DNA from: a virus
UHGV virus genome: UHGV-0268820
DNA: 28,814 nt
Direction: 5' to 3' (one strand)
In this document: positions 378-22,307 of the stretch, in pieces
How the letters are laid out: every line of letters starts with the position of its first letter
How positions within the stretch are numbered: position 1 is the first letter of the stretch
Notes under the pieces: model-generated
Databases searched by the model: none
Told to the model about the DNA's origin: nothing
What the model saw: only the letters and a program-made list of their open reading frames with translations
Made by a program: the position numbers and the translations under genes

Positions 378-1230
378 TCTTGCAACCGTAACACATTTAA
401 GGCCTTCACAACGGCCTGTGGAGCGTCGTGTGGCAGAAGTTGAAGATGGTTATACCCGTCTTGCAAATGCCCTGTATGAAGAGCTTATCGGCGCAGATTT
501 AACGAAAAATCAGAGCAAGGTTGCCCACGCCATATGCCGTAAAACATACGGCTACGGTAAAAAGATGGATCGCATCTCTGATAGTCAGTTAGCTCAAATT
601 ACCAGGCTGCCAAGACAGAAGGTAAACAAGGCCAAGAATGAGCTTATCGCGATGAAGGTTATCCTTCGCGAAGGCCAGCAAATCGGGCCTAACAAGAACA
701 TCGAGGAATGGCAAATCGAAGGGTGTCACTACTCTGGTGATAATGTCACTGCATTGGTGACAAAAAGTGTCACCAAAACGGTGACAGCGCTGTCACCAAA
801 ACAGGGACACACAAAAGAAACTATTACAAAAGAAAAAAGAAATAATAAAAACACTATGTCCGAAAGTGTTCGGACGGAGTGTGAAAAATCACCTGACCGT
901 CACGAAGAAACCGACAAGGCATTCGAGGAAATATTCTGGTGTGCAGGCATGCGGAAGGCCGGGAAGAAAAACGCAGCTTCGGCATTCAGAACACAGTTCA
1001 GGGAATGGCGTAAAACTACCAGGGGTACGGCAAGCGAGTTTGCCACGATGCTGGCAGAAGACATCGCATGCAGGAATGGTAAGCAGTTCGGATTCGACAG
1101 GTTATTACCATCGAGCTACCTGAACGGTCAGCGCTGGAACGACGAAAAGCCAGAAACCATTCAACCACAATCCAAACCATCATCCGCAATCACCGTATCG
1201 AAAACTGGCTACGTGTTTTTCGACAGGTGA
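370..1230 (+). CDS. replication initiator, lambda O-like N-terminal origin-binding domain with divergent C-terminal half
   Basis: N-terminal 110 aa align with lambda O ([57 protein letters not shown]); iterons and an AT-rich tract lie inside the gene as in lambda; C-terminal part is unrelated to the lambda O P-interaction domain. Confidence 0.85.
744..858. other. putative origin of replication: 3 iterons (TGTCACC-N5-GGTGACA type) plus adjacent AT-rich tract, inside the O-like gene
   Basis: Inverted-repeat iterons at about 744-762, 768-786 and 791-810 with roughly 23-24 bp phasing, followed by AT-rich 811-858 (acaaaagaaactattacaaaagaaaaaagaaataataaaaacac), which is near-identical in character to the lambda ori AT-rich region. 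Confidence 0.6.
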
Positions 1231-1337
1231 ACCATGAAATCAAAAATCAAATCGCTACTGGTCGCTGGTTATAACCACGGCTGGTTAAGTATTTCGTTTG
1301 TCGATTTCTGGTTTAAAAATCTCAATCTGAGGGAATC

Positions 1338-3218
1338 ATGAGGCCAAGTGAACTTAGCGACCTGCTTTGGGCGCAGGTTGACAGGGTGGCTCCGCACCTG
1401 TTGCCAAACGGCAAGAAAGAGGGGCATGAGTGGGTTGCCGGTAACGTCAACGGTGACAAGGGAAACAGCCTTAAGGTCAACCTTAGCGGAAAGAAAAAAT
1501 GGGCTGATTTCGCTGAGGGAGACGGCGGTGACATGCTTGATTTGTGGATGGCATGTCGTGGAATTAACCTGCATCAGGCTATGCAGGAAGCGAAAGCATT
1601 TCTCGGTATCAAGGATGACGATCACCATTTCGATGCCAAACGTGAGAAGAAATTCTCCAGACCTGATCGCAAGAAAATCGCCCGCTACGTTACCAGAACA
1701 GAATCCCATCTTGAGTACCTGCAATCGCGTGGCATATCGCCAGAAGTCGTAAAGCGCTACGAGGTTGTCAGCGGCAAGGTGTGGAATGGAGAGCGGGAAC
1801 TGGATGCTCTGGTGATTCCGTACAAACGCGATGGTGAGTTGTTGCAGGTCAAGCGAATCAGCACTGAGCGCCCGGACGGGAAGAAAGTCATTATGGCAGA
1901 AGGTGATTGCGAACCTTGTCTGTTCGGATGGCAGGCTCTGGACGCTGGCGTGAGGGCGGTTGTACTTTGCGAAGGCGAAATTGATTGTATGAGCTATGCG
2001 CAATACGGCATCTCGGCGTTATCCGTGCCGTTTGGTGGCGGGAAAGGCGCTAAGCAGCAGTGGATTGAGTTTGAGTATCACAATCTCGACAGGTTTGAGG
2101 AAATATTCATCTCGATGGACGTTGATGATGTTGGTCGTGAAGCCGCAAGGGAAATCGCAAGCCGACTCGGTGAACATCGTTGCCGTCTTGTTACTCTGCC
2201 GTACAAAGACATCAACGAATGCCTGATGAACGGTGTTACCGAGGATGAAATCTGGCAGTACATCGGCACGGCATCCTACTTCGACCCTGAAGAACTCTAC
2301 AGCGCGCGAGAGTTTTACCAGGACACTATCAACGCTTTCTACGGCAAGCAGCAGTATCTGTTTAATCCACCGTGGGAATCTCTGGCAGATAAATTCCAGT
2401 TCCGTGAGGCAGAGTTGACGCTGGTCAATGGTGTGAACGGTCACGGAAAAACGGAGGTTGTCGGGCATATGGCACTTGAGGCAATGCGTCAGGGTGTGAA
2501 GACGTGCATCGCGTCACTTGAGCTGAAGCCTGGTATTCTCCTTAAGCGCCTTACCCGTCAGGCGACGTGCTGCAAGATGCCGCCAGTGCTGGAAATTGAC
2601 TCTGCATTTAAATTTTATGACGAAAGACTTTGGGTGTTTGGCCTGACCGGAACGGCGAAAGCCGACAGGCTGATCGAAATATTCGACTACGCTCGCCGCC
2701 GATACGGGATCCAGTTATTCATCATCGACAGCCTGATGAAATGCGGCATAGGTGACGATGACTATAACGGGCAGAAAGCATTTGTTGACTCGATTTGTGA
2801 CTTCAAAAACAAAACAAACTCCCACGTCATTCTCGTTACTCACTCCAGAAAAGGAGACAGCGAAGAAAAACCAACCGGGAAAATGGACGTAAAAGGCTCT
2901 GGAGCGATAACAGACCTGACAGACAACCTTTTCATCATCTGGCGTAACAAGGCTCGCGAGAGAGCGTTACAGAGAGTTCAGAGTGGTGAAAAGATGTCAG
3001 AGAAGGACGAACAGGTACTGGCGTCTCCGGCATCTGTTTTGATGCTTGAAAAACAACGTAACGGCGAAGGTTGGGAAGGTGGCGTCCCGTTGTTCCTTGA
3101 TGAGCAATCGCACCAGTTCCTGCAACTTGAATCAGGATCGCCATATAGCTACATCGCCAATATGCCGAAATCGGAATATGACGAGGCGTGGCGACAGGAA
3201 AACGTGACGGAGTATTAA
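1338..3218 (+). CDS. bifunctional DNA primase/helicase (TOPRIM primase domain plus DnaB/T7-gp4-like helicase domain)
   Basis: 626 aa; TOPRIM-like acidic motif VVLCEGEIDCMSY...SVPFGGG; Walker A GVNGHGKTEV and Walker B-like LFIIDSLMK in the C-terminal half; GAGGGA RBS 8 nt upstream of ATG 1338. Confidence 0.85.
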   Translation: MRPSELSDLLWAQVDRVAPHLLPNGKKEGHEWVAGNVNGDKGNSLKVNLSGKKKWADFAEGDGGDMLDLWMACRGINLHQAMQEAKAFLGIKDDDHHFDAKREKKFSRPDRKKIARYVTRTESHLEYLQSRGISPEVVKRYEVVSGKVWNGERELDALVIPYKRDGELLQVKRISTERPDGKKVIMAEGDCEPCLFGWQALDAGVRAVVLCEGEIDCMSYAQYGISALSVPFGGGKGAKQQWIEFEYHNLDRFEEIFISMDVDDVGREAAREIASRLGEHRCRLVTLPYKDINECLMNGVTEDEIWQYIGTASYFDPEELYSAREFYQDTINAFYGKQQYLFNPPWESLADKFQFREAELTLVNGVNGHGKTEVVGHMALEAMRQGVKTCIASLELKPGILLKRLTRQATCCKMPPVLEIDSAFKFYDERLWVFGLTGTAKADRLIEIFDYARRRYGIQLFIIDSLMKCGIGDDDYNGQKAFVDSICDFKNKTNSHVILVTHSRKGDSEEKPTGKMDVKGSGAITDLTDNLFIIWRNKARERALQRVQSGEKMSEKDEQVLASPASVLMLEKQRNGEGWEGGVPLFLDEQSHQFLQLESGSPYSYIANMPKSEYDEAWRQENVTEY

Positions 3219-3246
3219 ATGACCATCTACATCACTGAGCTAATAA

Positions 3247-3279
3247 CAGGCCTGCTGGTAATCGCAGGCCTTTTTATTT
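3247..3279 (+). terminator. Rho-independent terminator after the primase-helicase gene (tR2-like position ahead of the nin region)
   Basis: 8-bp stem AGGCCTGC/GCAGGCCT (3248-3255 / 3264-3271) with an 8-nt loop, followed by TTTTTATTT. Confidence 0.6.
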
Positions 3280-3295
3280 GGGGGAGAGGGAAGTC

Positions 3296-3712
3296 ATGAA
3301 AAAACTAACCTTTGAAATTCGATCTCCAGCACATCAGCAAAACGCTATTCACGCGGTGCAGCAAATTCTTCCAGACCCAACCAAACCAATCGTAGTAACC
3401 ATTCAGGAACGCAACCGCAGCATTCGGCAAAATGCACGCCTTCACGCGATGCTATCTGAAATAAGTAAGAAGGCCACATATCATGGAAAAGAAAGAAATA
3501 TTGAGTTTTGGAAGGGGTTATTCGTTTCTGGTTGGCAAATTGCAACCAACCAGCACCCTGAGATTATATCAGGGTTAGAAGGTGAGCTAATAAACATCAG
3601 AGAGAGTACGGCGACTCTATCTGTAAAAAAAATATCCGAAATAATGGACTACATAGAAGCATATTGTGCCATGAACTCAATTCATCTTAGCGAATGGAGG
3701 AATTATGATTGA
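3296..3712 (+). CDS. ninB: NinB recombination protein, mosaic: lambda-identical N-terminus, divergent AT-rich C-terminal two-thirds
   Basis: From ATG 3296 (RBS GGGAGAGGG) the first 42 aa, MKKLTFEIRSPAHQQNAIHAVQQILPDPTKPIVVTIQERNRS, match lambda NinB as I recall it; the remainder is only distantly NinB-like and markedly AT-rich. The track ORF begins at an upstream TTG (3278). Confidence 0.8.
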   Translation: MKKLTFEIRSPAHQQNAIHAVQQILPDPTKPIVVTIQERNRSIRQNARLHAMLSEISKKATYHGKERNIEFWKGLFVSGWQIATNQHPEIISGLEGELINIRESTATLSVKKISEIMDYIEAYCAMNSIHLSEWRNYD

Positions 3713-4307
3713 GGTTTGGGTAGATATCGAAGGGATTCCATTTTATCAGGTTAGCAATAAAGGAAATTTCAGGTCTATTACGAGGGAAGTTACAGTAACA
3801 TCAACCAGACAGAGGCCATATAAGAAAATAATTAATGGCACTAGCGTAAAACCATTCAAGTGCAAGTCGACAGGATATCTTCAAATAAAGGTATACGGTA
3901 AGAAATACAGCGCCCACAGGATAGTTGCGAAAGCATTCTGTACAGGGTTCTGTGATGGCTTGGTAGTTAATCACAAAAATGGGCAAAGAGATGACAATAG
4001 GGCTGAAAACCTTGAATGGGTATCACATTCTGAAAACTCAAAGCACGGATATAAACAAAATGGAAGAATACCTATATCGCTAGGTAAATTTAGCGGTGAT
4101 CATCCTGCCAGTAAAGCTGTTATTTCTACTGACATGAAAACTGGTGAGGAGGTTTATTATGAAGCAGCTATGGATGCTGTCAGAGAAGGATTTGATAGTT
4201 CGTCAATTAGTCGTTGCTGTAATGGCGAAAGCTCATATCACAAAGGAAGATTCTGGCGATTTGCAAATGAAACAATGAAAGCAAGATGGGGAGACAGGGC
4301 TGCATGA
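3705..4307 (+). CDS. HNH homing endonuclease (NUMOD4-like N-terminus, HNH_3 core, C-terminal DNA-binding region)
   Basis: N-terminus MIEVWVDIEGIPFYQVSNKGNFRSI (NUMOD4-like); HNH motif NHKNGQRDDNRAENLEWVSHSEN; AT-rich composition; last residues KARWGDRAA match the lambda NinB C-terminus; start overlaps the ninB stop (ATGATTGA) with a GGAGG RBS. Confidence 0.8.
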   Translation: MIEVWVDIEGIPFYQVSNKGNFRSITREVTVTSTRQRPYKKIINGTSVKPFKCKSTGYLQIKVYGKKYSAHRIVAKAFCTGFCDGLVVNHKNGQRDDNRAENLEWVSHSENSKHGYKQNGRIPISLGKFSGDHPASKAVISTDMKTGEEVYYEAAMDAVREGFDSSSISRCCNGESSYHKGRFWRFANETMKARWGDRAA

Positions 4308-5176
4308 TAAATGTCGTTAGTTTCTCAGGTGGCAGGACGTCAGCATATTTACTCTGGCTAATGGAGCAAAAGCGACAGGCAGGTGAAGACGTGTATTACG
4401 TTTTCATGGATACAGGTTGTGAACATCCAATGACATATCGGTTTGTCAGGGAAGTTGTGAAGTTCTGGGATATACCGCTCACCGTATTGCAGGTTGATAT
4501 CAACCCGGAGCTTGGACAGCCAAATGGTTATACGGTATGGGAACCAAAGGATATTCAGACGCGAATGCCTGTTCTGAAGCCATTTATCGATATGGTAAAG
4601 AAATATGGCACTCCATACGTCGGCGGCGCGTTCTGCACTGACAGATTAAAACTCGTTCCCTTCACCAAATACTGTGATGACCATTTCGGGCGAGGGAATT
4701 ACACCACGTGGATTGGCATCAGAGCTGATGAACCGAAGCGGCTAAAGCCAAAGCCTGGAATCAGATATCTTGCTGAACTGTCAGACTTTGAGAAGGAAGA
4801 TATCCTCGCATGGTGGAAGCAACAACCATTCGATTTGCAAATACCGGAACATCTCGGTAACTGCATATTCTGCATTAAAAAATCAACGCAAAAAATCGGA
4901 CTTGCCTGCAAAGATGAGGAGGGATTGCAGCGTGTTTTTAATGAGGTCATCACGGGATCCCATGTGCGTGACGGACATCGGGAAACGCCAAAGGAGATTA
5001 TGTACCGAGGAAGAATGTCGCTGGACGGTATCGCGAAAATGTATTCAGAAAATGATTATCAAGCCCTGTATCAGGACATGGTACGAGCTAAAAGATTCGA
5101 TACCGGCTCTTGTTCTGAGTCATGCGAAATATTTGGAGGGCAGCTTGATTTCGACTTCGGGAGGGAAGCTGCATGA
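4304..5176 (+). CDS. ninC: NinC, phosphoadenosine phosphosulfate reductase-family protein
   Basis: 290 aa from ATG 4304, overlapping the previous stop (gcATGAtaa); [17 protein letters not shown]... (PP-loop SGGxxS motif) matches lambda NinC as recalled. The track ORF starts 18 nt upstream at 4286. Confidence 0.8.
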
Positions 5177-5346
5177 TGCGATGTTATCGGTGCGGTGAAT
5201 GCAAAGAAGATAACCGCTTCCGACCAAATCAACCTTACTGGAATCGATGGTGTCTCCGGTGTGAAAGAACACCAACAGGGGTGTTACCACTACCGCAGGA
5301 AAAGGAGGACGTGTGGCGAGACAGCGACGAAGTATCACCGACATAA
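5173..5346 (+). CDS. ninD: NinD-like small Cys-rich protein (57 aa)
   Basis: ATG 5173 overlaps the ninC stop (gcATGAtg); translation [57 protein letters not shown] has CxxC...CxxC spacing; size and position match lambda ninD. Below the ORF-track cutoff. Confidence 0.5.
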
Positions 5347-5489
5347 TCTGCGAAAACTGCAAATACCTTCCAACGAAACGCACCAGAAATAAACCCAAGC
5401 CAATCCCAAAAGAATCTGACGTAAAAACCTTCAACTACACGGCTCACCTGTGGGATATCCGGTGGTTAAGACATCGTGCGAGGAAATGA
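5313..5489 (+). CDS. ninE: NinE-like small basic protein (58 aa, GTG start)
   Basis: GTG at 5313 with AAGGAGGA RBS (5302-5309); translation (M)[57 protein letters not shown] matches recalled lambda NinE; stop overlaps the next ATG (5486). Confidence 0.45.
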
Positions 5490-5851
5490 CAATGGATTAT
5501 TCACAGTTAAGTGATTTTGAAATTAACAAGCGAGTGGCAATTTGCTGTGGATTTGCTCCCGAAGATTGCGAAATCGCAAAGTTGGGAACATCAATCGTTG
5601 GTGTTGAGTGGGATGACGAAACTGGTTATGCAATAAAAACGGTTGATTACTGTAAAAGCCCATCAGACGCAGAGCCGATTATCGTAGAGAACAGAATTGG
5701 CATTATTCCAGCGCCAGAAAATGGATTATGGAAGGCAGCGCATAGAAAAGTTGGCAGTGATAGTACCCCATATCATATGACTCAAGATGAAAACCCACTC
5801 CGCGCCGCCATGATTGTCTTTCTCATGATGCAGGACGCCAATAATGCTTAG
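5486..5851 (+). CDS. hypothetical nin-region protein (121 aa)
   Basis: ATG 5486 overlaps the ninE stop (aATGAc); [34 protein letters not shown]...; no recognisable catalytic motif. The track ORF starts upstream at 5450. Confidence 0.6.
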
Positions 5852-6020
5852 CCCATCCCAATCCCTTCAATACCAGAAAGAAAGCGTCGAGCGGGCTTTA
5901 ACGTGCGCTAACTGCGGTCAAAAGCTGCATGTGCTGGAAGTTCACGTGTGTGAGCACTGCTGCGCAGAACTGATGAGCGATCCGAATAGCTCAATGTACG
6001 AGGAAGAAGACGATGAATGA
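5844..6020 (+). CDS. ninF: NinF-like small protein (58 aa)
   Basis: [58 protein letters not shown] matches recalled lambda NinF; start overlaps the previous gene's end and the stop overlaps the next start (ATGAATGA). Confidence 0.55.
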   Translation: MLSPSQSLQYQKESVERALTCANCGQKLHVLEVHVCEHCCAELMSDPNSSMYEEEDDE

Positions 6021-6735
6021 GTTAATAAATGGCAATGCCATCAAAATGACAAGCATTGAAATCGCTGAGTTGGTGGGTAAGCGTCATGACAATGTGAAAC
6101 GTACCATCGAAACGCTGGCTAAAAATGGTGTTATCCGGCTTCCTCAAATTGAGGTTTCCGAAAGAATCAATAACTTAGGGTTCAATGTTCAGTACGAGCA
6201 TTACGTCTTCGAAGGCGAACAAGGTAAGCGAGACAGTATTGTCGTTGTTGCCCAGTTGTCGCCGGAATTCACCGCTCGCCTTGTTGACCGCTGGCGAGAG
6301 CTTGAAGAAGCTGCGGTTAATATCCCCAAAACGCTACCAGAAGCGTTGCGCCTTGCTGCTGATCTTGCTGAGCAGAAAATGCAACTGGAAAACCAGCTCG
6401 CAATTGCCGCACCTAAAGTTGAGTTTGCCGATCGAGTTGGCGAGGCCAGCGGAATTTTGATTGGAAACTTTGCAAAGGTTGTCGGTATTGGTCCAAACAA
6501 ACTGTTTGCGTGGATGCGCGATCACAAAATCCTTATTGCTTCAGGTTCCCGGCGCAATGTGCCAATGCAGGAATATATGGATCGCGGCTATTTCACAGTG
6601 AAAGAAACAGCGGTCAACACAAATCACGGAATACAGATATCGTTCACCACAAAAATCACCGGGCGTGGTCAACAGTGGCTGACCAGAAAGCTGCTCGATA
6701 ACGGAATGCTGAAAGTAACAGGGGAGGCTGCTTAA
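6013..6735 (+). CDS. phage regulatory protein, Rha-family N-terminal domain with KilAC-like C-terminal domain (antirepressor-like)
   Basis: 240 aa; N-terminus ...[24 protein letters not shown]... is typical of Rha/Bro-N-type DNA-binding domains; C-terminal half resembles AntA/KilAC antirepressor domains; translationally coupled to the flanking nin genes. Confidence 0.7.
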
Positions 6736-7340
6736 TGGCTAAACCAGCGCGAAGGAAATGCAAAATATGCAAGGAATGGTTTCACCCGGCATTCTCAAAT
6801 CAGTGGTGGTGCTGCCCGGAACACGGAACTCAGTTAGCACTCGAACTACAAAGTAAACAGCGAAAAAAAGCGGAAAAAGCAGCAGAGAAGAAACGGCGAC
6901 GAGAGGAGCAGAAACAGAAAGATAAACTTAAGATTCGAAAACTCGCCTTAAAGCCCCGCAGTTACTGGATTAAACAAGCCCAACAAGCCGTAAACGCCTT
7001 CATCAGAGAAAGAGACCGCGACTTACCATGTATCTCGTGCGGAACGCTCACGTCTGCTCAGTGGGATGCCGGACATTACCGGACAACTGCTGCGGCACCT
7101 CAACTCCGATTTGATGAACGCAATATTCACAAGCAATGCGTGGTGTGCAACCAGCACAAAAGCGGAAATCTCGTTCCGTATCGCGTCGAACTGATTAGCC
7201 GCATCGGGCAGGAAGCAGTAGACGAAATCGAATCAAACCATAACCGCCATCGCTGGACTATCGAAGAGTGCAAGGCGATCAAGGCAGAGTACCAACAGAA
7301 ACTCAAAGACCTGCGAAATAGCAGAAGTGAGGCCGCATGA
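6735..7340 (+). CDS. ninG: NinG (Rap) recombination-associated structure-specific endonuclease
   Basis: 201 aa; [31 protein letters not shown]... with the lysine-rich [26 protein letters not shown] tract and CISCG...CVVCNQHK Cys motifs; near-identical to recalled lambda NinG. Confidence 0.85.
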
Positions 7341-7543
7341 CGTTCTCAGTAAAAACCATTCCAGACATGCTCGTTGAAGCATACGGAAACCAGACAGAAG
7401 TGGCACGCAGACTGAAATGTAGTCGCGGCACGGTAAGAAAATACGTTGATGATAAAGACGGGAAAATGCACGCCATCGTCAACGACGTTCTCATGGTTCA
7501 TCGCGGATGGAGTGAAAGAGATGCGCTATTACGAAAAAATTGA
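7337..7543 (+). CDS. ninH: NinH
   Basis: 68 aa [39 protein letters not shown]... (HTH-like) matches recalled lambda NinH; ATGA overlap with the ninG stop. Confidence 0.8.
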
Positions 7544-8192
7544 TGGCAGCAAATACCGAAATATTTGGGTAGTTGGCGATCTGCACGGATGCTACACGAA
7601 CCTGATGAAAAAACTGGAGACGATAGGATTCGACACCCAAAAAGACCTGCTTATCTCGGTTGGCGATTTGGTCGATCGCGGTGCAGAGAACGTCGAATGC
7701 CTGGAATTAATCACATTCCCCTGGTTCAGAGCTGTACGTGGAAACCATGAGCAAATGATGATTGATGGCTTATCAGATCGTGGAAACGTCAATCACTGGC
7801 TGCTTAATGGCGGTGACTGGTTCTTCAATCTCGATTACGACAAAGAAATTCTGGCTAAAGCTCTTGCCCATAAAGCAGATGAACTTCCGTTAATCATTGA
7901 ACTGGTGAGCAAAGGTAAAAAATATGTCATCTGCCACGCCGATTATCCTTGTGACGAATACGAGTTTGGAAAGCCAGTTGATCATCAGCAGGTAATCTGG
8001 AACCGCGAACGAATCAGCAACTCACAAGACGGGATCGTGAAAGAAATCAAAGGAGCGGACACGTTCATCTTTGGTCATACGCCAGCAGTGAAACCACTCA
8101 AGTTTGCCAACCAGATGTATATCGATACCGGCGCAGTGTTCTGCGGAAATCTCACATTGATTCAGGTACAGGGAGAAGGCGCGTGGGCATAA
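7521..8192 (+). CDS. ninI: NinI serine/threonine protein phosphatase (lambda PPase-like, calcineurin-like metallophosphatase)
   Basis: From ATG 7521: [33 protein letters not shown]...[16 protein letters not shown]...RGNHE - metallophosphatase motifs GDxHG, GDxxDRG, GNHE. The track ORF starts upstream at 7446, but the lambda-type start is MRYYEK. Confidence 0.85.
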
Positions 8193-8701
8193 GAGAACTA
8201 AACCTCACCAAAGAACAGCATGAGTGGCTGAATGGCTGGCTTGAACTGTGGGGCGCATGGGTTTATTCAGGTCGTCTGGAAAAGCGCATGAGCAGCGTAA
8301 TAGCGAAGTTCATGGAGAGCGTAGAGCCGGGAAGAGTTATGACAAGGCCAATGTGTAATGATGATGATGGAATGTTGATTTCTCAGGTCGTCGATTCCGT
8401 CATGTACATTGACAAGAAAGCCTTTGGCATCCTCCTCAGCTACTACGCTCATGGTTCATCTAAGCGAGCAATTGCATCCTACTATCACGCGACTGCAAAG
8501 CCACGCAAGATGTGTGGACGTGGTGGCGAGGGATGGAGAAAACCTTCACTGGCAACCTGTAGAAACGAAATTGACGACATCCTGAAAGCGTCGTTATTTG
8601 TTTTGTACCAACCAATGCAAAATGCTTTCAAAATGCGTAAACGTGTTGAGAAAGTTAAGCATGTTGCTGTTAAAAGCCTTGACATGCAATTAGCCATTTA
8701 G
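8183..8701 (+). CDS. late-gene antiterminator Q, QuuD/Q21-like family (not lambda-Q type)
   Basis: 172 aa from GTG 8183 (RBS GGGAGAAGG); motifs [17 protein letters not shown] and LLSYYAHG resemble the E. coli QuuD family; located directly before pR' and the lysis genes. Confidence 0.7.
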
Positions 8702-8708
8702 CCATAAT
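8679..8708 (+). promoter_or_regulatory. candidate late promoter pR' (sigma70 TTGACA-18-CATAAT) overlapping the 3' end of Q
   Basis: TTGACA at 8679-8684 and CATAAT at 8703-8708; position at the end of Q is as expected for a lambdoid pR'/qut region. Confidence 0.45.
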
Positions 8709-8718
8709 TAGAAGGTAA

Positions 8719-8763
8719 GCTGCCGTTAGTGACTCTTAAGTTGCAACGGTGGCTTTTTTATTT
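8719..8763 (+). terminator. candidate tR'-like intrinsic terminator shortly downstream of pR'
   Basis: 9-bp stem GCUGCCGUU/AACGGUGGC (two G-U pairs) with a 17-nt loop, followed by TTTTTTATTT (8754-8763). Confidence 0.45.
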
Positions 8764-8855
8764 GCACAACAGGTAAGAGCATTGAACCCGCAGACCTCGC
8801 GGAATTGGTGAAAGGTGCCGCGCAGTGCTCTTATCGTTGTGGCAGCACAACGATA
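8764..8855 (+). repeat. late-leader element copy 1 (GCACAACAGGTAAGAGCATT ... AGTGCTCTT) ending in a perfect 10-bp palindrome
   Basis: Shares a 21/22-nt head motif and the AGTGCTCTT tail motif with copy 2; a 10-bp inverted repeat TATCGTTGTG-gcag-CACAACGATA lies at 8832-8855; resembles the lambda post-tR' leader as recalled. Confidence 0.5.
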
Positions 8856-9023
8856 GTTTTCGTCAGAGTTGGCGACTTTGCGGTTTTTTAGAAACTGATC
8901 ACAAAGATAAATGCAAACGAAGAAATGTATCTGGCCGTAGCTTAACCGCTAAACACCAGTGAGGTATTCCAGTTCCTCATCAACGAATCTGGCGCACTGG
9001 CCCGGTGTGATTAATAATGGGCA

Positions 9024-9130
9024 CACAACAGGTAAGAGCATTAAAGAACTGGCAAAGAGCTTAACGGTCTGCGAAAGCATTTCTTAGTGGCACAACTGGC
9101 CGGTACAACTGAGTGCTCTTTCCGGTGTGG
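9024..9130 (+). repeat. late-leader element copy 2 (direct repeat of copy 1, about 260 bp downstream)
   Basis: CACAACAGGTAAGAGCATT at 9025-9043 and AGTGCTCTTTCCGGTGTGG at 9112-9130; head and tail are mutually complementary (GTAAGAGCA/TGCTCTT), predicting a long-range stem. Confidence 0.5.
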
Positions 9131-9585
9131 TGAATGCGCAGGCTGATGCGTTAATCAGGTGAACGAGACACCCGCCGGTCCGTGATATGGCACACCGTGC
9201 CGGTCATATCTGCCGCGGTTAGGTTTACGAGGATTTCGTAAAGCTGGTCTAGGGTGAAGCCGTGAAAGCGGAGGAAGTAAAACGAGGCGTCGGTACACGC
9301 CTATCGTCATTAAGTCGGAGTTCAGCACCGACCGCCACAACCCAAACTGAGCCGTAGCCACTGACTATCCTGAATTCATCAGTGATAGTTACGCTGCGGC
9401 CTTCTACACATGATCTTCGTGAAAGCGGGTGGCAGGAGGTTGCGCTAACAACCTCATGCCGTTTTGCCCGTGCATATCGGTCACGAACAAATCTGATTAC
9501 TAAACACAGTAGCCTGGATTTGTTCTATCAGTAATCGACCTTATTCCTAATTAAATAGAGCAAATCCCCTTATTGGGGGTAAGAC

Positions 9586-9909
9586 ATGAAGATGCCAGAA
9601 AAACATGACCTGTTAGCCGCCATTCTCGCGGCAAAGGAACAAGGCATCGGGGCAATCCTTGCGTTTGCAATGGCGTACCTTCGCGGCAGATATAATGGCG
9701 GTGCGTTTACAAAAACAGTAATCGACGCAACGATGTGCGCCATTATCGCCTGGTTCATTCGTGACCTTCTCGACTTCGCCGGACTAAGTAGCAATCTCGC
9801 TTATATAACGAGCGTGTTCATCGGCTACATCGGCACTGACTCGATTGGTTCGCTTATCAAACGCTTCGCTGCTAAAAAAGCCGGAGTAGAAGATGGTGGA
9901 AATCAATAA
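9586..9909 (+). CDS. S: holin S with dual-start motif (S107 antiholin from ATG 9586, S105 holin from ATG 9592)
   Basis: [62 protein letters not shown]... essentially identical to recalled lambda S; Met-Lys-Met dual start present. Confidence 0.9.
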
Positions 9910-10369
9910 TCAACGTAAGGCGTTCCTCGATATGCTGGCGTGGTCAGAGGGAACTGATAACGGACGTCAGAAAACCAGAAATCATGGTTATGACGTCATT
10001 GTTGGCGGAGAGCTATTCGCTGATTACTCCGATCACCCTCGCAAACTTGTCACGCTAAACCCAAAACTCAAATCAACAGCCGCCGGACGTTACCAGCTTC
10101 TTTCCCGTTGGTGGGATGCCTACCGCAAGCAACTTGGCCTGAAAGACTTCTCTCCGAAAAGCCAGGATGCTGTGGCATTGCAACAGATTAAAGAGCGTGG
10201 CGCTTTACCGATGATTGATCGCGGTGATATCCGTCAGGCTATCGACCGTTGCAGCAATATCTGGGCTTCACTGCCGGGCGCTGGTTATGGTCAGTTCGAG
10301 CATAAGGCTGACAACCTGATTGCAAAATTCAAAGAAGCAGGCGGAACGGTCAGAGAGATTGAGGTATGA
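9893..10369 (+). CDS. R: endolysin R (lytic transglycosylase)
   Basis: 158 aa [42 protein letters not shown]... near-identical to recalled lambda R; start overlaps the end of S. Confidence 0.9.
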
Positions 10370-10803
10370 GCAGAGTAGCCGCGATTATCTCCGCTCTGGT
10401 TATCTGCATCATCGTCTGCCTGTCGTGGGCTGTTAATCATTACCGTGATAACGCCATGACCTACAAAGAGCAGCGCGATAAAGCCACATCCACCATCGCT
10501 GATATGCAGAAGCGTCAACGTGATGTAGCAGAACTCGATGCCAGATATACAAAGGAGCTTGCTGATGCTAACGCGACTATCGAAAGTCTCCGTGCTGATG
10601 TTTCTGCTGGTCGTAAGCGCCTGCAAGTCGCCGCCACCTGTGCAAAGTCAACGACCGGAGCCAGCAGCATGGGCGATGGAGAAAGCCCAAGACTTACAGC
10701 AGATGCTGAACTCAATTATTACCGTCTCCGAAGTGGAATCGACAAGATAACCGCGCAGGTTAACTACCTGCAGGAGTACATCAGGACGCAATGCCTTCGA
10801 TGA
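10366..10803 (+). CDS. Rz: i-spanin Rz (lambda-like N-terminus and TM segment, divergent periplasmic region)
   Basis: [30 protein letters not shown]... N-terminal TM helix and coiled-coil region; ATGA overlap with the R stop. Confidence 0.85.
10565..10750 (+). CDS. Rz1: o-spanin Rz1 lipoprotein embedded in the +1 frame of Rz
   Basis: Embedded ORF with signal peptide [20 protein letters not shown], lipobox VSAC and a Pro-rich mature region ([13 protein letters not shown]); start chosen at the internal Met to give a lambda-like Rz1 length of about 61 aa. Confidence 0.6.
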
Positions 10804-11376
10804 TAGCGATAATTTTACTCATCATCCTTCACATCTGGCTCTGTAGACAGGGTGGTGATCACTTCTGGAGTGAATCCAGATTAAACATCTCATTGCTGAT
10901 GCTTGAAGTTGAGCATCTGGCGCGCGGTAAGGGGCTGCGTTGAGATAAGAGCCAGTTCATTACAAAGCCCATCTACGGGTGGGCTTGATAATGAAACCGT
11001 GATTTACATCCCTCACAATCCAGGTATGTAAAAGCTGGATCATGCGAGAACGGATTTAACTAAATCTGTGCACCACCAGTTACGGCAGTACCGCGAAAAA
11101 ACCCAAGCCAGTAAGTGGGGAAATAACACTGGCAGCCACTGAAAGATGAACATCCTGCCTTATGGCAAAAAAGATTCTTTGTGGTGGCGGACTGATGGAA
11201 AGACATCGGTTATTGCAGAGGCCATTCAATGAGTGGTCTCGACAATGGCTTATACCCTACACGGGATAACTTAACTGATATCCCCACAAGCGGATAAAGA
11301 GATTCTCAATGTCAGGAATCTACTTTTAGTCCTAGTAATGATGAACTAGATATCAGTTGAGTCGCTTGGGTGGTGA

Positions 11377-11613
11377 TTACGATTCTGCTTCAAACTCAGA
11401 AATTAGTTGATGAACACGTTCAGTATATGATGGGTTAGAACCTAGAAACTCTTCCACTGTCTGAATGGTTTCATCACCCTCCCATTCAAAATGGCTCACA
11501 GGCGACGAATGACCAGCCCTGACTTGGTAGGAGCCATTGTCCAATTTGTCCAGGAATATATAAGTTTCATTATCATGACCTGTATTTCGGTAAAAAATTT
11601 GCTTTGAGTTCAT
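11377..11613 (-). CDS. hypothetical small acidic protein (78 aa), minus-strand moron between the lysis cassette and terminase
   Basis: Only convincing minus-strand ORF in the window; AGGAG-type RBS (ctagaGGAtttctttaATG on the - strand); AT-rich relative to its flanks; no recognisable domain. Confidence 0.5.
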   Translation of the reverse strand: MNSKQIFYRNTGHDNETYIFLDKLDNGSYQVRAGHSSPVSHFEWEGDETIQTVEEFLGSNPSYTERVHQLISEFEAES

Positions 11614-11637
11614 TAAAGAAATCCTCTAGAGAAAACT

Positions 11638-12189
11638 ATGGCACTCACCGACAAGCAAGAAATGTTCTGTCGCGAGTACCTCATCGATTTAAACGCCACA
11701 CAAGCGGCTATTCGGGCGGGGTACAGCGCAAAGACAGCTAACCGTACCGCATCCGAAAACCTGTCAAAACCTGACATCAAGTTAAGAATCGCCGAACTGA
11801 AAGCGCAACGCAATGATCTTATTGGTATTAATGCAGAATATGTACTTAATCGCCTTATTGAAATCGACCAGATGGATGTGCTCGACATTCTCCTGCAAAA
11901 CGGTGAGCTAAAGCCCATTAAAGACTGGCCTAAGGTATGGCGCACAACGCTATCAGGAATGGATGTCGTGGAGATGGCATCCGCAGATAGCGCCGCACTT
12001 CTGAAGAAAATCAAATGGCCTGATAAGGTTAAAAACCTTGAATTGCTCGGGCGTCATGTTTCTGTTCAGGCGTTTAAAGACAATGTCAAAAATGAAGTGA
12101 CTGGTGCTGACGGAGGACCAGTCAGAACAGAAATTACCAACTTAACGCCGGAGCAGGCTGCAGAGGCGTATAGAAAAATGATGGGCTAA
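11638..12189 (+). CDS. terminase small subunit (Terminase_2 / P27-like family)
   Basis: N-terminus [30 protein letters not shown]... is the hallmark of this TerS family; immediately followed by the large subunit. Confidence 0.8.
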
Positions 12190-12191
12190 GT

Positions 12192-13814
12192 ATGCCGTTA
12201 CCATTCCCCTTCGATTTTAAACATCCTGATTACCAGATGGTTTTTGAATGGCGGATGGAACGCCTACAGCGCATTCGCCAGAATCCTGAAATATTGCCCG
12301 TATTGAAGCAGTTTTACCGAACCAATCCGGCTCAGTTCATCATCGACTGGGGCATGACAACGGACCCGCGTAATATTGATTATGGCCTTCCGGTGACCAT
12401 TCCGTTTTTACTCTTCCCTAAGCAGGAGGAGTGGATCCACTGGATTATGGAACGCTGGAGCAATCGGGAGAATGGTATTACCGAAAAATCCCGTGAAATG
12501 GGGCTCAGTTGGACCGCGATCGGACTGGCCTGCTCGCTTTGTCTCTTCAACAAAGAAATGGTTATCGGTTTCGGCTCCCGTAAAGAGGAATACGTCGACA
12601 GCACTGGTGACCCGAAAGCATTGTTCTGGAAGGCACGCAAGTTCGTGGAAACGCTACCTGTAGAGTTTCGCGGTTCGTGGAGTGAGAAGAAGCACGCGCC
12701 ATATATGCGTGTTGAGTTTCCTGAAACTGGTGCCGTTATCAAAGGCGAGGCTGGCGATAATATTGGTCGTGGTGACCGTACCACGCTTTATCTGGTTGAT
12801 GAGGCTGCATTCCTTCAGCGTCCTCTGCTGATTGATGCGGCGTTGTCACAAACGACGCGTTGCCGTATCGACCTGAGTTCAGTTAACGGCATGGCTAACC
12901 CGTTCGCTCAGAAGCGTCATGGCGGGAAGATACCGGTATTCACATTCCACTGGCGGGATGATCCTCGCAAGGATGAAGAGTGGTATCGCAGGGAATGCGA
13001 GAAAATCGATAATCCGGTGGTGGTGGCACAGGAACTTGATCTGAACTACAGCGCATCAGCGGAAGGCGTTCTGATTCCATCCGAATGGGTACAGGCTGCC
13101 GTTGATGCGCATATCAAACTGGGTATCCAGCCAACAGGCAAACGACTTGGCGCGATGGATGTCGCCGACGAAGGCAGGGACAAAAATGCCTTTTCCACCC
13201 GTCATGGCTTCCTCCTGGAAAATGTGCGGGAATGGTCCGGTGTGGGCAGCGACATTTATCAGTCCGTCGAGAAGGTTTTCGGCTTTTGCGAACAGGACAA
13301 CCTCGAAGAGTTTCGCTTTGACGAGGACGGGCTGGGCGCTGGCGTTCGCGGCGATGCACGCGCTATCAACGAACTGCGTAACGCTGCGCGTCGACCGTCA
13401 ATACTCGCCACACCGTTTCGAGGTAGTGGCGCGGTATTTGATCCGGATGATGAAGCTGTTCGCGGGGACAACGGGCAAGCCGCACGTCTGAACAAGGACT
13501 TCTTCGCTAACGCCAAAGCCCAGAGCTGGTGGCGGTTACGTAAACTTTTTCAGAATACCTGGCGCGCCGTGGTTGAAGGTATGGCTTACAACCCGGACGA
13601 AATCATCTCAATCAGCAGTAGCATGGCACTCAAAGATAAACTCATCATCGAGCTTTCGCAGCCGACCTATTCCATTAATGGTGTGGGAAAAATCGTTATT
13701 GATAAACAGCCTGATGGAACCCGGTCGCCAAACCTTGCCGACTCGGTGATGATCAGCTACGCGCCAATGAATTCAGCCCTGAACATCTGGGAGCTGCTAG
13801 GGAGACAGGCCTGA
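12192..13814 (+). CDS. terminase large subunit
   Basis: 540 aa; Walker-B-like LYLVDEAAF; acidic residues in the C-terminal half consistent with a nuclease domain; position between terS and portal. Confidence 0.75.
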
Positions 13815-15280
13815 TGGCACGAAACAAACAAGCCCTGCGGCGAACTGCGCAGGCCACAGCTGATGGTTATGAGAATTTTATTGCCCGCGTAGGGATGCAG
13901 ACACCTAACCAGCACTCAGCATCCACCTACCGGGCTAATTTCACCAGTCGTAACCGCATGCTGGTGGAATGGTCCTATCGTTCGTCCTGGATCATCGGCG
14001 AAGCGGTCGATGCTATCCCGGATGATATGACCCGCAAAGGCATTCGCATCACTTCGGAAATTGATGCAAAAGATCGCGGCATTCTCGAATCACAACTGGA
14101 TGAGTTGCAAATCTGGGATGCGCTGAACGACGTGCTGAAATGGTCTCGCCTCTACGGCGGCGCGGTCGGTTTCATCATGATTGAGGGGCAGGCACCAATG
14201 ACCCCGCTGCGACCCGAAACCATCGGTAAGGGCAAGTTTAAGGGGATTCTCCCGCTCGACCGCTGGATGATTGACCCGGTACTGACCCGCCGCATTAAAG
14301 ATATGGGGCCGGACCTGGGTAAACCTGAGTTTTACGATGTGGTGACCACAGCAACGGGAATTCCTGCCTGGCGCATTCATCACAGTCGACTGATTCGCTT
14401 TGATGGCGTCACGCTGCCATTTCAGCAGAAGATGACCGAGAACGAATGGGGAATGTCGGTTGTAGAGCGTATCTGGGATCGTCTTACCGCGTTCGACAGC
14501 GCTACTGTCGGCGCGGCGCAGCTGGTCTACAAAGCGCATTTGCGTACCTACAGCGTGGAGAAGCTACGCGAGCTTATCGCACTTGGTGGTCCTGCGTATG
14601 AAGCGTTGCTGAAGAATATCGACCTGATTCGACAGTTCCAGAGTAATGAAGGCATGACGCTCATGGACTCGCGGGATAAGTTTGAAACCCATCAGTACAG
14701 CTTCAGTGGTCTGGATGACATCCTTTCACAGTTTGCAGAACAGATTAGTGGCGCTGTTGGTATCCCACTGGTGCGGTTGTTCGGACAGTCCCCGAAAGGA
14801 TTTTCTACCGGCGATGCAGACCTTGCCAACTATTACGATCGGGTAAGCTCGTTGCAGGAGAGACGTTTACGTCTTCCGGTGCGGCGGATACTGGACATCA
14901 TGCATCGTTCGGAACTTGGCAAGCCGCTGCCGGACGATTTCACGTTTGAGTTTAACCCGCTCTGGCAAATGTCTGATGTCGATCGCTCAACGGTGGCGTT
15001 AAACACCACCAACGCAATCAGTACAGCGCTGGGTGATGGTCTGATGACACTGAAAGCCGCTATGACCGATTTGCGCGAAAATTCTGACGTAACCGGCATC
15101 GGGGCATCCATTACCGACGAGGACATCGAGAATGCCGAAGACGAAGCGCCGCCCGGCATCGGCGAACCTGATGACGAACCGCAGGAACCGTCAGGCGGAA
15201 ATCCGCTATCGAACCAGCCTACGCAGGATAGCGCGGGCGGTCGGAGACATCGTAAATGGTCGCTACGATGGTTCAAATGA
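13814..15280 (+). CDS. portal protein
   Basis: 488 aa; gene order after terL; acidic C-terminal tail (DEDIENAEDEAPPGIGEPDDEPQEP) typical of portals. The 3' end (15132-15280) overlaps the next ORF out of frame, so the true stop is uncertain. Confidence 0.7.
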   Translation: MARNKQALRRTAQATADGYENFIARVGMQTPNQHSASTYRANFTSRNRMLVEWSYRSSWIIGEAVDAIPDDMTRKGIRITSEIDAKDRGILESQLDELQIWDALNDVLKWSRLYGGAVGFIMIEGQAPMTPLRPETIGKGKFKGILPLDRWMIDPVLTRRIKDMGPDLGKPEFYDVVTTATGIPAWRIHHSRLIRFDGVTLPFQQKMTENEWGMSVVERIWDRLTAFDSATVGAAQLVYKAHLRTYSVEKLRELIALGGPAYEALLKNIDLIRQFQSNEGMTLMDSRDKFETHQYSFSGLDDILSQFAEQISGAVGIPLVRLFGQSPKGFSTGDADLANYYDRVSSLQERRLRLPVRRILDIMHRSELGKPLPDDFTFEFNPLWQMSDVDRSTVALNTTNAISTALGDGLMTLKAAMTDLRENSDVTGIGASITDEDIENAEDEAPPGIGEPDDEPQEPSGGNPLSNQPTQDSAGGRRHRKWSLRWFK

Positions 15281-15905
15281 CAGTATCACGGAAATTATTG
15301 AGGCGCTGGAACGCTACAGTGAAATCATAACCCCCTGGGCGACAAAGGTCGCGGAAAACTTTACCGCCGACATTGTGCGCAAGAATGATGAGCAGTGGCG
15401 TAAACACAGCAAAACCATCAGCCGTGAGCTACGCAATCTGGTAAACAGTGCCCCTCCAGGGCAGGTGATGAAATCCATCGTTGCTGAACAGGTTAAGTAC
15501 ATCAAATCGCTCCCCCTCGAGGCAGCTGACAGGGTGTACGACATCCAGAATCGGGCGATAGAAGCTGTTGTTACCGGTGGGAGAGCGGAACATTTTGCTA
15601 AAGAAATAGCCGCATCGGGTGATATAGCAAAGTCCAGAGCTGACCTGATTGCCCGTACTGAACTTGGACGTGCAACCGGCGCGCTGGATCAGGCGCGTGC
15701 GCTGTCAATTGGTTCGAATGGTTATATCTGGCGTACAGCCGAAGATGGTGACGTCAGGCATTCTCATCGGGAAATGGAAGGTAAATTTGTCGAATGGGGC
15801 AAACCTCCAACGCTTGATGGCATGACCGGTCACGCTGGCGAGCTCCCGAATTGTCGCTGTTATAAAGAAATCGTTTTTCCCTCCTCCCATTCTTATCCCG
15901 CCTGA
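15132..15905 (+). CDS. head morphogenesis protein (Mu gpF / SPP1 gp7-like)
   Basis: C-terminal motif ...WRTAEDGDVRHSHREMEG...GHAGELPNCRCY is characteristic of the Mu F-like family; start uncertain because of the 149-nt overlap with the portal ORF. Confidence 0.65.
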   Translation: MPKTKRRPASANLMTNRRNRQAEIRYRTSLRRIARAVGDIVNGRYDGSNDSITEIIEALERYSEIITPWATKVAENFTADIVRKNDEQWRKHSKTISRELRNLVNSAPPGQVMKSIVAEQVKYIKSLPLEAADRVYDIQNRAIEAVVTGGRAEHFAKEIAASGDIAKSRADLIARTELGRATGALDQARALSIGSNGYIWRTAEDGDVRHSHREMEGKFVEWGKPPTLDGMTGHAGELPNCRCYKEIVFPSSHSYPA

Positions 15906-15919
15906 ATCGCAGGTAACAC

Positions 15920-17140
15920 ATGAAATATTTTTTCAATACCCGGCTGGGGGAAACCCGCTATCAGCTGGCTGACGGCTCGTTGCTGTGCAAAGACGTGCCG
16001 ATAGGACGAACAGGTAAGCAGCTCTATGGTGCTGATGACCTGCCAAAACTGAAACCCGATAAGTTCGGTGAAATAGTCGTCACGCGATCTCCTGAGCAGG
16101 TATTCCATCCCGCCACGCTTGCCTCATTCGAAGGAATGAGTATCACGGTGTTGCATCCCGAGGATGAAAACGGGGATGTGCGGCTGGTAAATCCCGAGAA
16201 CTGGAAAGAGCTTGCTGTCGGGCACCTCCAGAATGTCCGGCGCGGGACGGGTGAGCAGTCTGATTTGATGCTGGCTGACCTTATCGTCAAAGACGAAAGC
16301 GCCATTCAGCTTATCGAAGATGGCCTGCGTGAAGTGTCGTGCGGCTATGACGCGGAGTACGAGCAGACCGAGCCAGGTAAAGCCGAGCAGGTCGATATTA
16401 CCGGAAACCATGTGGCTCTTGTCCCCAAAGGCAGAGCCGGAAATCGTTGTGCAATTGGAGACAGAGACACAATGGCAAATCAAAAGAAAAACTGGTGGAA
16501 CCGCATGCGTGCAGCCATCAAGACAGGAGATGCCGACACCATGAACGAACTGGTGGAGTCGGCTCCCGCATCGGTTACAGGAGATGAGGGGGATTTGCCG
16601 CAGGGCGTTAATCTCAACATCAACCTGTCCCCGCAGCAACCACTACCGGACAAAGCACCAGAGATGGGTGGAGGTCCAACCGGCGACAGTGATGATGACC
16701 TCAAAACATTACTGAAAGCCCTGCTGGCTAAGCTGGAAGGAAATGCCACGGGCGATAACGATAATAAGCCTGACGATAATCCGACCGGTGACGGCGAGGA
16801 CGATGAAGAGGAAACCACGATTACTGGTGACTCAGCCTGGCGTGCCGAAGTTATCGTTCCGGGTATCGATCTGAGCCGTAAGATGAAACCGACCGAGTTC
16901 AAACGCGAGGTTCTGGCTTCCGCAGATAAAACGCTGGTTCGCCAGATCGTCGGTGATGCGGATATCCGCAAATTGCCGAAACAATCGGTCGACATGGCGT
17001 TTAATGCCGTGTCTGAGATTGCCAAAGGGCGAAACACCCGCGCCACCACCGGCGATGCACAGCGCCTAAACATGGGCATGACCAGTATCGCTTCCCTGAA
17101 CAAACAAAACGCTGAATTCTGGGCAAACCGTAAAGGGTAA
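15920..17140 (+). CDS. putative prohead protease/scaffolding protein (DUF2213-like N-terminal domain with acidic low-complexity scaffold region)
   Basis: 406 aa; central D/E/G-rich tract (GDSDDDLKTLLKALLAKLEGNATGDNDNKPDDNPTGDGEDDEEE); located between the MuF-like and capsid genes. Confidence 0.5.
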   Translation: MKYFFNTRLGETRYQLADGSLLCKDVPIGRTGKQLYGADDLPKLKPDKFGEIVVTRSPEQVFHPATLASFEGMSITVLHPEDENGDVRLVNPENWKELAVGHLQNVRRGTGEQSDLMLADLIVKDESAIQLIEDGLREVSCGYDAEYEQTEPGKAEQVDITGNHVALVPKGRAGNRCAIGDRDTMANQKKNWWNRMRAAIKTGDADTMNELVESAPASVTGDEGDLPQGVNLNINLSPQQPLPDKAPEMGGGPTGDSDDDLKTLLKALLAKLEGNATGDNDNKPDDNPTGDGEDDEEETTITGDSAWRAEVIVPGIDLSRKMKPTEFKREVLASADKTLVRQIVGDADIRKLPKQSVDMAFNAVSEIAKGRNTRATTGDAQRLNMGMTSIASLNKQNAEFWANRKG

Positions 17141-17143
17141 AAA

Positions 17144-17650: not shown

Positions 17651-17661
17651 GGAACAGACGA

Positions 17662-18603: not shown

Positions 18604-18610
18604 CAGCCAC

Positions 18611-18631
18611 ATGGCCCCCTGGCGGGGCCAT
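18611..18631 (+). promoter_or_regulatory. intergenic stem-loop after the major capsid gene (possible attenuator or mRNA-stability element)
   Basis: Perfect 8-bp inverted repeat ATGGCCCC-ctggc-GGGGCCAT; no downstream T-run, so not a canonical terminator. Confidence 0.35.
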
Positions 18632-18644
18632 TAAGGATGACCCG

Positions 18645-20704: not shown

Positions 20705-20707
20705 GCT

Positions 20708-21853: not shown

Positions 21854-21863
21854 GGGGAAGTGA

Positions 21864-22304: not shown

Positions 22305-22307
22305 TAC

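Follow-up and report, generated by a model that had tools for sequence, protein, structure and literature searches.

Organization of the ninB–ninC region

The DNA analysed here is a 28,814-nt stretch of the virus genome UHGV-0268820; the whole stretch is called the window, and all coordinates refer to it unless another sequence is named. The analysis concerns a cassette in the nin region that consists of a foreign 3' part of ninB and a gene for an HNH endonuclease. Three overlapping genes are found at this locus on the + strand: ninB (3296–3712), whose product is 138 amino acids long, the HNH open reading frame (ORF; 3705–4307, 200 amino acids), and ninC (4304–5176), which forms the right flank, is 99% identical to its lambda counterpart, and encodes a PAPS-reductase-like protein (Pfam PAPS_reduct). 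The HNH ORF overlaps ninB by 8 nt (ATGATTGA), and its stop codon overlaps the start of ninC as ATGA. A GGAGG sequence at positions 3696–3700 corresponds to a ribosome-binding site for the HNH gene; together with the 8-nt overlap, this site indicates that translation of the HNH ORF is coupled to that of ninB.

Both genes of the cassette are composite. Codons 1–42 of ninB (3296–3421, +) are of the lambda type and constitute a putative left homology arm and crossover zone, while the 3' two-thirds of the gene, codons 43–138 and the stop codon (3422–3712, +), belong to a different subfamily, referred to below as NinB'. The chimeric protein contains a full-length NinB domain (Pfam, E = 8.5e-41, residues 3–130 aligned to positions 2–129 of a 131-position profile) and also matches phrog_72 (E = 3e-43). 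The lambda-type C-terminal extension (residues ~135–146) is absent from it, as it is from other short NinB types. In the HNH ORF, residues M1–M191 (3705–4277, +) form the native body, in which a NUMOD4 beta-sheet domain is followed by the HNH_3 motif and a C-terminal helix-turn-helix (HTH)-like domain, and residues 192–200 with the stop codon (4278–4307, +) are codons K138–A146 and the stop of lambda ninB.

A promoter scan of the cassette gave no more sites than were found in shuffled controls, and no Rfam family, group I introns included, was detected anywhere in the window. Since no intron RNA is present in the window, the HNH gene is free-standing; its overlaps with the ninB stop and the ninC start also show that it is not intron-encoded.

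Junctions with bacteriophage lambda

When the window was compared by blastn with lambda (NC_001416), positions 3219–3421 were 98.0% identical and positions 4277–5486 were 99.3% identical over a 1210-nt alignment, while nothing alignable was obtained for 3422–4276. These 855 bases stand in place of 284 bases of lambda ninB. The breakpoints, 3421/3422 on the left and 4276/4277 on the right, fall within 4 nt of those given (~3425 and ~4280) in an earlier note on this DNA that was based on the letters of the window. The same note had described ninB as lambda-identical for ~42 amino acids and divergent afterwards, and the comparison bears this out: residues 1–42 are those of lambda (3 of 126 nt differ), and identity to lambda-type NinB is ~38% beyond residue 42. 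Its further claim, that the endonuclease ORF ends with the C-terminus of lambda NinB, also holds, the last nine residues (KARWGDRAA) being residues 138–146 of the 146-amino-acid lambda protein. At the nucleotide level, 30 of the 31 positions in 4277–4307 match lambda. A chance match of the tail is excluded, because the tail belongs to the 1210-nt alignment with 99.3% identity. The stretch is AT-rich, as had been noticed: the GC content is 0.39 in the 3' part of ninB and 0.40 in the HNH gene, compared to 0.50 upstream and 0.46 downstream, and it was lower in the HNH gene than in the flanks in all 12 lineages checked.

The left switch point coincides with VVTIQERNRS, a conserved motif common to the two NinB subfamilies. 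The right junction lies in frame nine codons before the resident ninB stop, so that the HNH gene uses this stop and its ATGA overlap with ninC. Lambda represents the empty-site counterpart of the window, with flanks 98–99% identical and the cassette absent. No empty-site phage with the primase/helicase genes found upstream in the window was present in the phage collection, and lambda itself matches from tR2 onward only. Taken together, the alignments securely indicate that the interior of a resident lambda-type ninB was exchanged for the cassette and that the tail of the old gene was captured. The earlier note had placed the HNH gene between ninB and ninC; the gene does adjoin both, but it arrived as part of a replacement of the ninB interior, and the last 31 nt of the old ninB survive downstream of the native HNH sequence.

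The HNH endonuclease

The NUMOD4/HNH architecture anticipated from the letters was recovered by Pfam, with NUMOD4 (PF07463) at residues 3–63 (E = 1.5e-13, 51.2 bits against a cut-off of 23.4 bits) and HNH_3 (PF13392) at E = 8.2e-12; an I-HmuI NUMOD-like match (E = 8.4e-4) was under the Pfam cut-off. The only significant relative by sequence in the PDB was I-HmuI itself (1U3E; E = 4.3e-14, residues 55–186). An AlphaFold2 model with a mean pLDDT (predicted local distance difference test) of 84.9 was compared to known structures using Foldseek, and 1U3E was again the only significant match (E = 9.7e-13, 190 columns, probability 1.00). The alignment of the model to 1U3E supports the overall extended fold and the C-terminal HTH-like domain. 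The captured residues 192–200 were modelled as a low-confidence helix (pLDDT ~53).

The residues of the catalytic motif are N89, H90 (codon 3972–3974), N102, and N111. The last three align with H75, N87, and N96 of I-HmuI, so the catalytic His and Asn are in place, and they are invariant in 28 homologs. The position of N89 corresponds to the metal ligand D74 of I-HmuI; Asp and Asn alternate at this position across the family.

The NinB' subfamily and its HNH partner

The 96 residues of the NinB' part have 110 homologs at E ≤ 1e-10, with the common core QNA[RK]LHAML...FWKGLFVSGWQIAT...GLEGEFINIREST. Native members of the subfamily have N-termini unlike that of lambda, yet they share VVTIQER[NT]RS exactly at the point where the window switches from lambda to NinB'. 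Of eight genomic contexts of NinB' that were inspected, down to ~60% identity, seven have an HNH_3 gene immediately downstream, overlapping the ninB' stop, and so do 24 of 24 IMG/VR loci at ≥71% identity. This gene is usually of the window's HNH lineage; an unrelated HNH_3+AP2 endonuclease fills the same slot in two lineages (L009 and L010). NinB' without an HNH gene was not found in the IMG/VR survey at ≥71% identity or in four further contexts down to ~60%. Relatives of NinB at ≤60% identity are mostly without an adjacent HNH gene. A survey of genome contigs yielded mostly distant NinB (≤51% identity, a Mixta locus aside) and no further close NinB' lineage.

NinB'–HNH lineages were found in Yersinia kristensenii, Mixta, Pantoea, Salmonella, a metagenome-assembled genome (MAG) labelled Acinetobacter, and metagenome contigs. 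The two genes diverge together. Amino acid identities to the window copy, for the NinB' part and the HNH protein, respectively, are 0.99 and 0.98 in P27, 0.85 and 0.78 in SEN22, 0.71 and 0.65 in Yersinia, 0.67 and 0.64 in L014, and 0.60 and 0.55 in Pantoea. In the distant pairs, synonymous sites have reached saturation, and the ratio of nonsynonymous to synonymous divergence (dN/dS) between the window and P27 is ~0.08 in both genes. By these sequence measures, NinB' and the HNH gene are an old pair that is co-diverging under purifying selection. This runs counter to the earlier suggestion that the divergent ninB half is incidental flanking sequence dragged along from a donor; it is a NinB subfamily paired with, and co-diverging with, the HNH lineage.

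Homologs of the HNH protein at 50–69% identity follow other Orf-type genes, namely a divergent ninB in Klebsiella, a DUF1367/phrog_319 gene in Cronobacter and in an Enterobacter phage, and another NinB subfamily in L143. A homolog in Pseudomonas aeruginosa is located after a 112-amino-acid gene without known family.

Additional HNH_3 genes were encountered nearby. A second, different one lies a few genes downstream in the Acinetobacter-labelled MAG (L015, 2306–3043, after a 76-amino-acid ORF) and in Cronobacter (L141, 3806–4357, after rusA), and the nin region thus seems to accumulate such genes. In the IMG/VR locus L106 (2372–3531), a NinB 49% identical to NinB', with the C-terminus ...SGIEIKDLT, precedes a 250-amino-acid HNH_3+AP2 protein, a relative of the L009 type-b product; this is another independent Orf–HNH adjacency.

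The native end of the HNH protein and capture of NinB tails

The HNH homolog of Salmonella phage SEN22 (73% nucleotide identity) ends with ...RFWRFADERMAA. That of Enterobacter phage vB_Ecl_MII_001, which matches over the 3' 57% of the gene (77%), has the same protein end. The native C-terminus in both is ...ERMAA, and the lambda NinB tail is absent from them, as well as from the Yersinia copy. The E. coli (Escherichia coli) HNH sequence departs from these relatives immediately behind the Met191 codon, which is shared, and then runs on as lambda ninB codons 138–146, which places the right junction inside the endonuclease frame, as the earlier note had proposed.

Other HNH proteins have ends of the same kind. 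In P0125/L142 the HNH protein ends with ...SDASRLEIEWATRWGKS, and its best matches among 4254 ORFs are residues 128–142 of lambda, HK022, and Sf6 NinB (E = 5e-4). The ends in P0182/L143 (...AAEHGVRWSEYRRADA) and P0201 (...QGVEWSDP...) match NinB C-terminal regions weakly. The type-b protein of L009 ends with ...QDAKNQAIEWASRFGDKQRAAA; when this end was searched by tblastn against 2.3 Gb of phage DNA, six matches were obtained, of which five are NinB C-termini in Yersinia phages (E = 0.6–2, the query being short). No significant NinB match was obtained for the tails of L014, L016/P0146, P0152, and P0186. The junctions vary in position, but each of them is in frame and lies within the last 10–25 codons of the gene that was displaced. 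These comparisons suggest that related HNH genes of two types captured NinB tails independently and at other junction points, with weaker support from P0182/L143, P0201, and L009. An in-frame tail would be kept because it retains the ninB stop codon, through which translation is coupled to the following gene by the ATGA overlap.

We considered whether the HNH gene had been inserted within NinB' itself, truncating it. The chimeric ninB ends with a native short C-terminus, ...SEWRNYD, and short C-termini of the ...Y-D/E form with the same GGAGG..ATGAnTGA boundary are native in HNH-less NinB (HK620-type and Pasteurellaceae types). Moreover, one and the same NinB segment is found in L143 both in the upstream NinB and in the remnant behind the HNH gene, and the presence of two ninB alleles rules out simple insertion. 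This scenario was rejected on both grounds.

The native HNH ends ERMAA and KGKVAA fit a pattern seen at other gene ends in this region. In the window, three consecutive nin-region genes (4296–4307, 5165–5176, and 6724–6735) end with ...AA-stop (DRAA, REAA, and GEAA), their stops overlapping the next start as ATGA. Such ends resemble conserved boundaries between genes where exchange of lambdoid modules takes place.

Distribution of the cassette

The 3' part of ninB' was found in 65 phage records and the HNH body in 69, 63 of them near full length; 65 of the latter, SEN22 included, coincide with the ninB' records. The carriers include Escherichia phage APC_JM3.2, in which the context is as in the window, and ~60 Stx-converting phages, among them P27 and phage 86. 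The cassette in the Stx phages and APC_JM3.2, with the KARWGDRAA tail included, shows 98.5–99.8% nucleotide identity. The annotation of these records (P27, phage 86, Stx2a phages, and APC_JM3.2) is generic, an "HNH endonuclease" or "NUMOD4 domain-containing protein" beside NinB. Among 5426 complete E. coli genomes, 77 hold the cassette, always complete, and 1307 hold the interior of lambda-type ninB. Neither ninB' alone nor HNH alone was found among the phage records and the complete E. coli genomes.

All E. coli copies have one junction, ...ATG|AAAGC..., and their downstream neighbour is ninC, dam, ninE, or another gene. As the identical junction recurs in ~63 phage records and 77 E. coli genomes, in front of ninC, dam, or ninE, it evidently did not arise in the phage studied here. 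The 5' arms of ninB in cassette carriers are of at least three types, the lambda type, the HK022/Sf6 type (P27), and a third type (L077), with left crossovers at ~3360, at ~3408, or up to 3421. In all, copies with 98.5–100% cassette identity are found in at least five upstream and at least four downstream contexts, and the tail is the only right-hand homology common to these contexts. In P27 (dam) and L070 (ninE), the 31-nt tail and the downstream sequence are identical to those of HNH-less lambda-type ninB alleles with the same downstream gene. In P27, compared with 933W, the cassette stands in place of the 3' end of Lar and a third NinB type.

A "CGA" variant of the tail was considered as cassette-specific proof of crossovers in the tail. 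It was rejected, since it is present in 53 viral contigs with HNH-less ninB, in some of which the tail and downstream sequence are identical to P27 or L070.

In SEN22 (L004), the first 126 nt of ninB (2080–2205 of that sequence) are near-identical to the window (synonymous divergence, dS, ~0.2), and the rest (2206–2496) is saturated (proportion of synonymous differences, pS, 0.75). This discontinuity suggests that the lambda-type 5' arm was refreshed by recombination, or was joined independently, at the same conserved motif.

Decayed copies were also observed. In Mixta sp. Marseille-Q2659 (L013/L018, ~2910–4300), the HNH gene contains an IS1-family element, and its C-terminal remainder is a 96-amino-acid ORF ending with ...VWVGYTEEKNRSAA. 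The HNH gene of an E. coli prophage from IMG/VR (L064, 2784–2951) is cut after 46 residues by another insertion, and ninB' is frameshifted in L081. In P0114/P0116, frameshift variants of the E. coli HNH gene, the C-terminal 44–46 residues (...RFIMKQLWMLSEKDL...) correspond to a +1-frame ORF at 4144–4278 (+) of the window.

Neighbouring features

A tR2-like intrinsic terminator was found by a terminator scan at 3248–3271 (+), upstream of ninB and outside the cassette, within the lambda-identical flank (3219–3421). Two ORFs absent from lambda, one of 133 amino acids (5450–5851; DUF2591-like in APC_JM3.2) and one of 240 (6013–6735), lie between ninD/ninE-like sequence and ninF and represent further insertions of modules in the nin region. 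The window as a whole is a mosaic. The early/nin region (846–11284) matches APC_JM3.2, a P22-like Escherichia phage, at 97% identity, and the structural region (9911–24170, terminase and head onward) is 98% identical to vB_EcoM-606R2 and vB_EcoM-689R2. The names of the latter two bear the myovirus tag vB_EcoM; the match list names no tail genes for them.

Discussion

The picture that we favour, with a probability of roughly 0.55, is that of a homing-type endonuclease that is free-standing and brings a linked ninB allele with it, as judged from sequence comparisons. According to this picture, the HNH protein would nick or cleave ninB alleles that are without the cassette, most likely within the 3' portion of the gene, which is lost or disrupted where the cassette is present. 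A co-resident phage with the cassette would then serve as the template for repair, so that the HNH gene and the resistant NinB' allele would be copied jointly, as in intron-less homing with co-conversion; homology arms would be provided by the 31-nt tail and by the conserved segment at the 5' end of ninB. We infer that HNH-driven homing and exclusion of co-infecting phages would result. The I-HmuI architecture, the sporadic distribution, and the spread via very short right-hand homology favour this reading, as do the repeated capture of resident tails, the sharing of the slot with another HNH gene, the low GC content, and occasional decay. The cassette is polymorphic for presence at one locus in otherwise homologous genomes (lambda; 77 against 1307 E. 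coli genomes), and a divergent flanking allele, putatively resistant to cleavage, is always inherited with the HNH gene and diverges with it. Spread into several contexts is compatible with above-Mendelian inheritance, without proving it.

Several observations weigh against homing. The cassette is ~17 times rarer than lambda-type ninB in complete E. coli genomes, which argues against very efficient drive. The metal-ligand position is occupied by Asn, and both the cleavage activity of the HNH protein and its target site are predictions. NinB' was not found without its partner in the surveyed loci, and the strong purifying selection on both genes is explained no less well by a useful gene pair than by a selfish element; HNH genes behind other Orf-type genes (DUF1367/phrog_319 and Klebsiella NinB) hint at a functional link. 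HNH-less lambda-type ninB, finally, is equally mosaic and occurs beside ninC, dam, and ninE.

A doubtful alternative, with which the last observation agrees, is that the cassette is a passenger of ordinary lambdoid mosaicism, which got into a lambda-type ninB on a single occasion, through illegitimate or short-homology recombination, and was then reshuffled by way of conserved patches and gene boundaries, as other nin-region modules are, the endonuclease having no role in the spread and being perhaps inactive or engaged in an unrelated role. HNH-less ninB reassorts 5' arms, tails, and downstream genes in the same way, so ordinary recombination could spread the cassette without the nuclease. 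The left crossover lies in a motif conserved between the subfamilies, nin genes commonly end with ...AA-stop and ATGA overlaps that serve as recombination boundaries, and the single junction in all E. coli copies makes one origin sufficient. A mere passenger, however, would not be expected to show the strong purifying selection and invariant catalytic residues of the HNH ORF, and HNH genes of two types apparently picked up tails from different NinB types in independent events, with several junction points. A change of downstream context would moreover need a crossover within ≤31 nt of homology, an event that should be rare in Red recombination unless a break lies nearby.

The evidence for a functional link bears on a somewhat less doubtful, though still unlikely, explanation, namely that NinB' and the HNH protein are a cooperating recombination module of benefit to the phage, in which a site-specific or structure-specific nickase makes single-stranded DNA (ssDNA) or breaks where an Orf-type mediator loads RecA or Red-beta. 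The pair would be a two-gene version of fused NinB–HNH proteins, and the captured C-terminal helix of NinB might guide the nuclease to the same DNA or the same partner. Such a module agrees with the 8-nt overlap, with the conservation and co-divergence of the pair (from 99/98% to 60/55%, synonymous sites being saturated), with the HNH_3 gene behind NinB' throughout the IMG/VR survey at ≥71% and in four further contexts to ~60%, with HNH homologs right after other Orf-family genes in Klebsiella, Cronobacter, an Enterobacter phage, and L143, and with the in-frame capture of tails in every case seen. There are also precedents in the documented NinB–HNH fusions (Balaji and Aravind, PMC2034487; Curtis et al., PMC4118853), among them Gp16 of Staphylococcus aureus phage PhiNM1, a RecA-dependent nuclease (PMC12817073). 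On the other hand, the nuclease has the NUMOD4/HNH_3/HTH homing architecture of I-HmuI, whereas the DUF968/Gp16 fusions have a zinc-finger HNH, and most ninB genes, that of lambda included, work without an adjacent HNH gene. An unrelated HNH_3+AP2 gene can fill the same slot, decayed copies exist, and the tail is absent from the SEN22, Yersinia, and Enterobacter copies and was modelled at low confidence. The strictest version, an obligate two-part recombination-initiation system in which a sequence-reading nickase would create the substrate for recombinase loading by its Orf partner and the repeatedly captured helix would be a tether of the nuclease to an Orf/SSB/ssDNA complex rather than a scar, as a split Gram-negative counterpart of the NinB–HNH fusions, strikes us as improbable.

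In the literature on lambdoid and Stx phages, we found no paper that links ninB, an HNH gene, and homing, and no description of a chimeric ninB, a captured tail, recurrent tail capture, or obligate NinB'–HNH pairing. HNH boxes are drawn, without comment, in the ninR maps of Figure 1A of Curtis et al. 2014 (PMC4118853). Neither the gene as such, which many records annotate, nor the class of homing endonucleases is new, while the NinB'–HNH pairing and the tail capture appear to be undescribed.

The cassette is widespread and occurs in Stx-converting prophages of O157-type E. coli, where the gene for the nuclease is accompanied by a particular allele of a recombination gene. Much is known about free-standing homing endonucleases from lytic phages of the T4 and SPO1 types; to our knowledge, they have hardly been studied in temperate lambdoid phages, in which mosaicism is usually ascribed to passive recombination. 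Should the nuclease prove active, mosaicism and competition among co-resident prophages would have a concrete driver, and wild-type lambda, a natural empty-site target, offers a convenient test system. If NinB' and the HNH protein cooperate, they would extend the Orf–HNH partnership known from Gram-positive phage fusions. For annotation, the cassette explains chimeric "NinB" proteins and the presence of a NinB peptide on an endonuclease.

Three known systems can be compared with the cassette. In the DUF968/Gp16 fusions of Gram-positive phages, an Orf-type mediator is likewise linked to an HNH nuclease, but as a single polypeptide with a zinc-finger HNH (PMC4118853, PMC12817073), whereas here there are two overlapping ORFs and an HNH_3 enzyme with sequence-reading domains. 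I-HmuI of Bacillus phage SPO1 has the same three-part architecture of NUMOD4 beta-sheet, HNH motif, and C-terminal HTH-like domain. It resides in a group I intron, in contrast to the free-standing gene described here, whose product is 28% identical to it, has Asn at the D74 position, and bears an extra foreign tail of nine residues. I-HmuI nicks one DNA strand. The free-standing homing endonucleases of T4-type phages are likewise encoded between or inside conserved genes, are sporadic, and are tied to a divergent, co-converted neighbour allele. Different endonuclease genes replace one another at a single site in these phages, as in the slot behind NinB', and cleavage and marker exclusion were demonstrated in lytic phages for the Mob genes and for SegF/SegG ("intron-less homing"). 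The T4-type enzymes are GIY-YIG or other HNH types, while the enzyme described here is of the HNH_3 type, with an activity predicted from its sequence. The linked flank of the T4-type genes amounts to a few polymorphisms, whereas that of the cassette is a whole alternative gene subfamily (~38% identity), stably co-inherited with the endonuclease gene.

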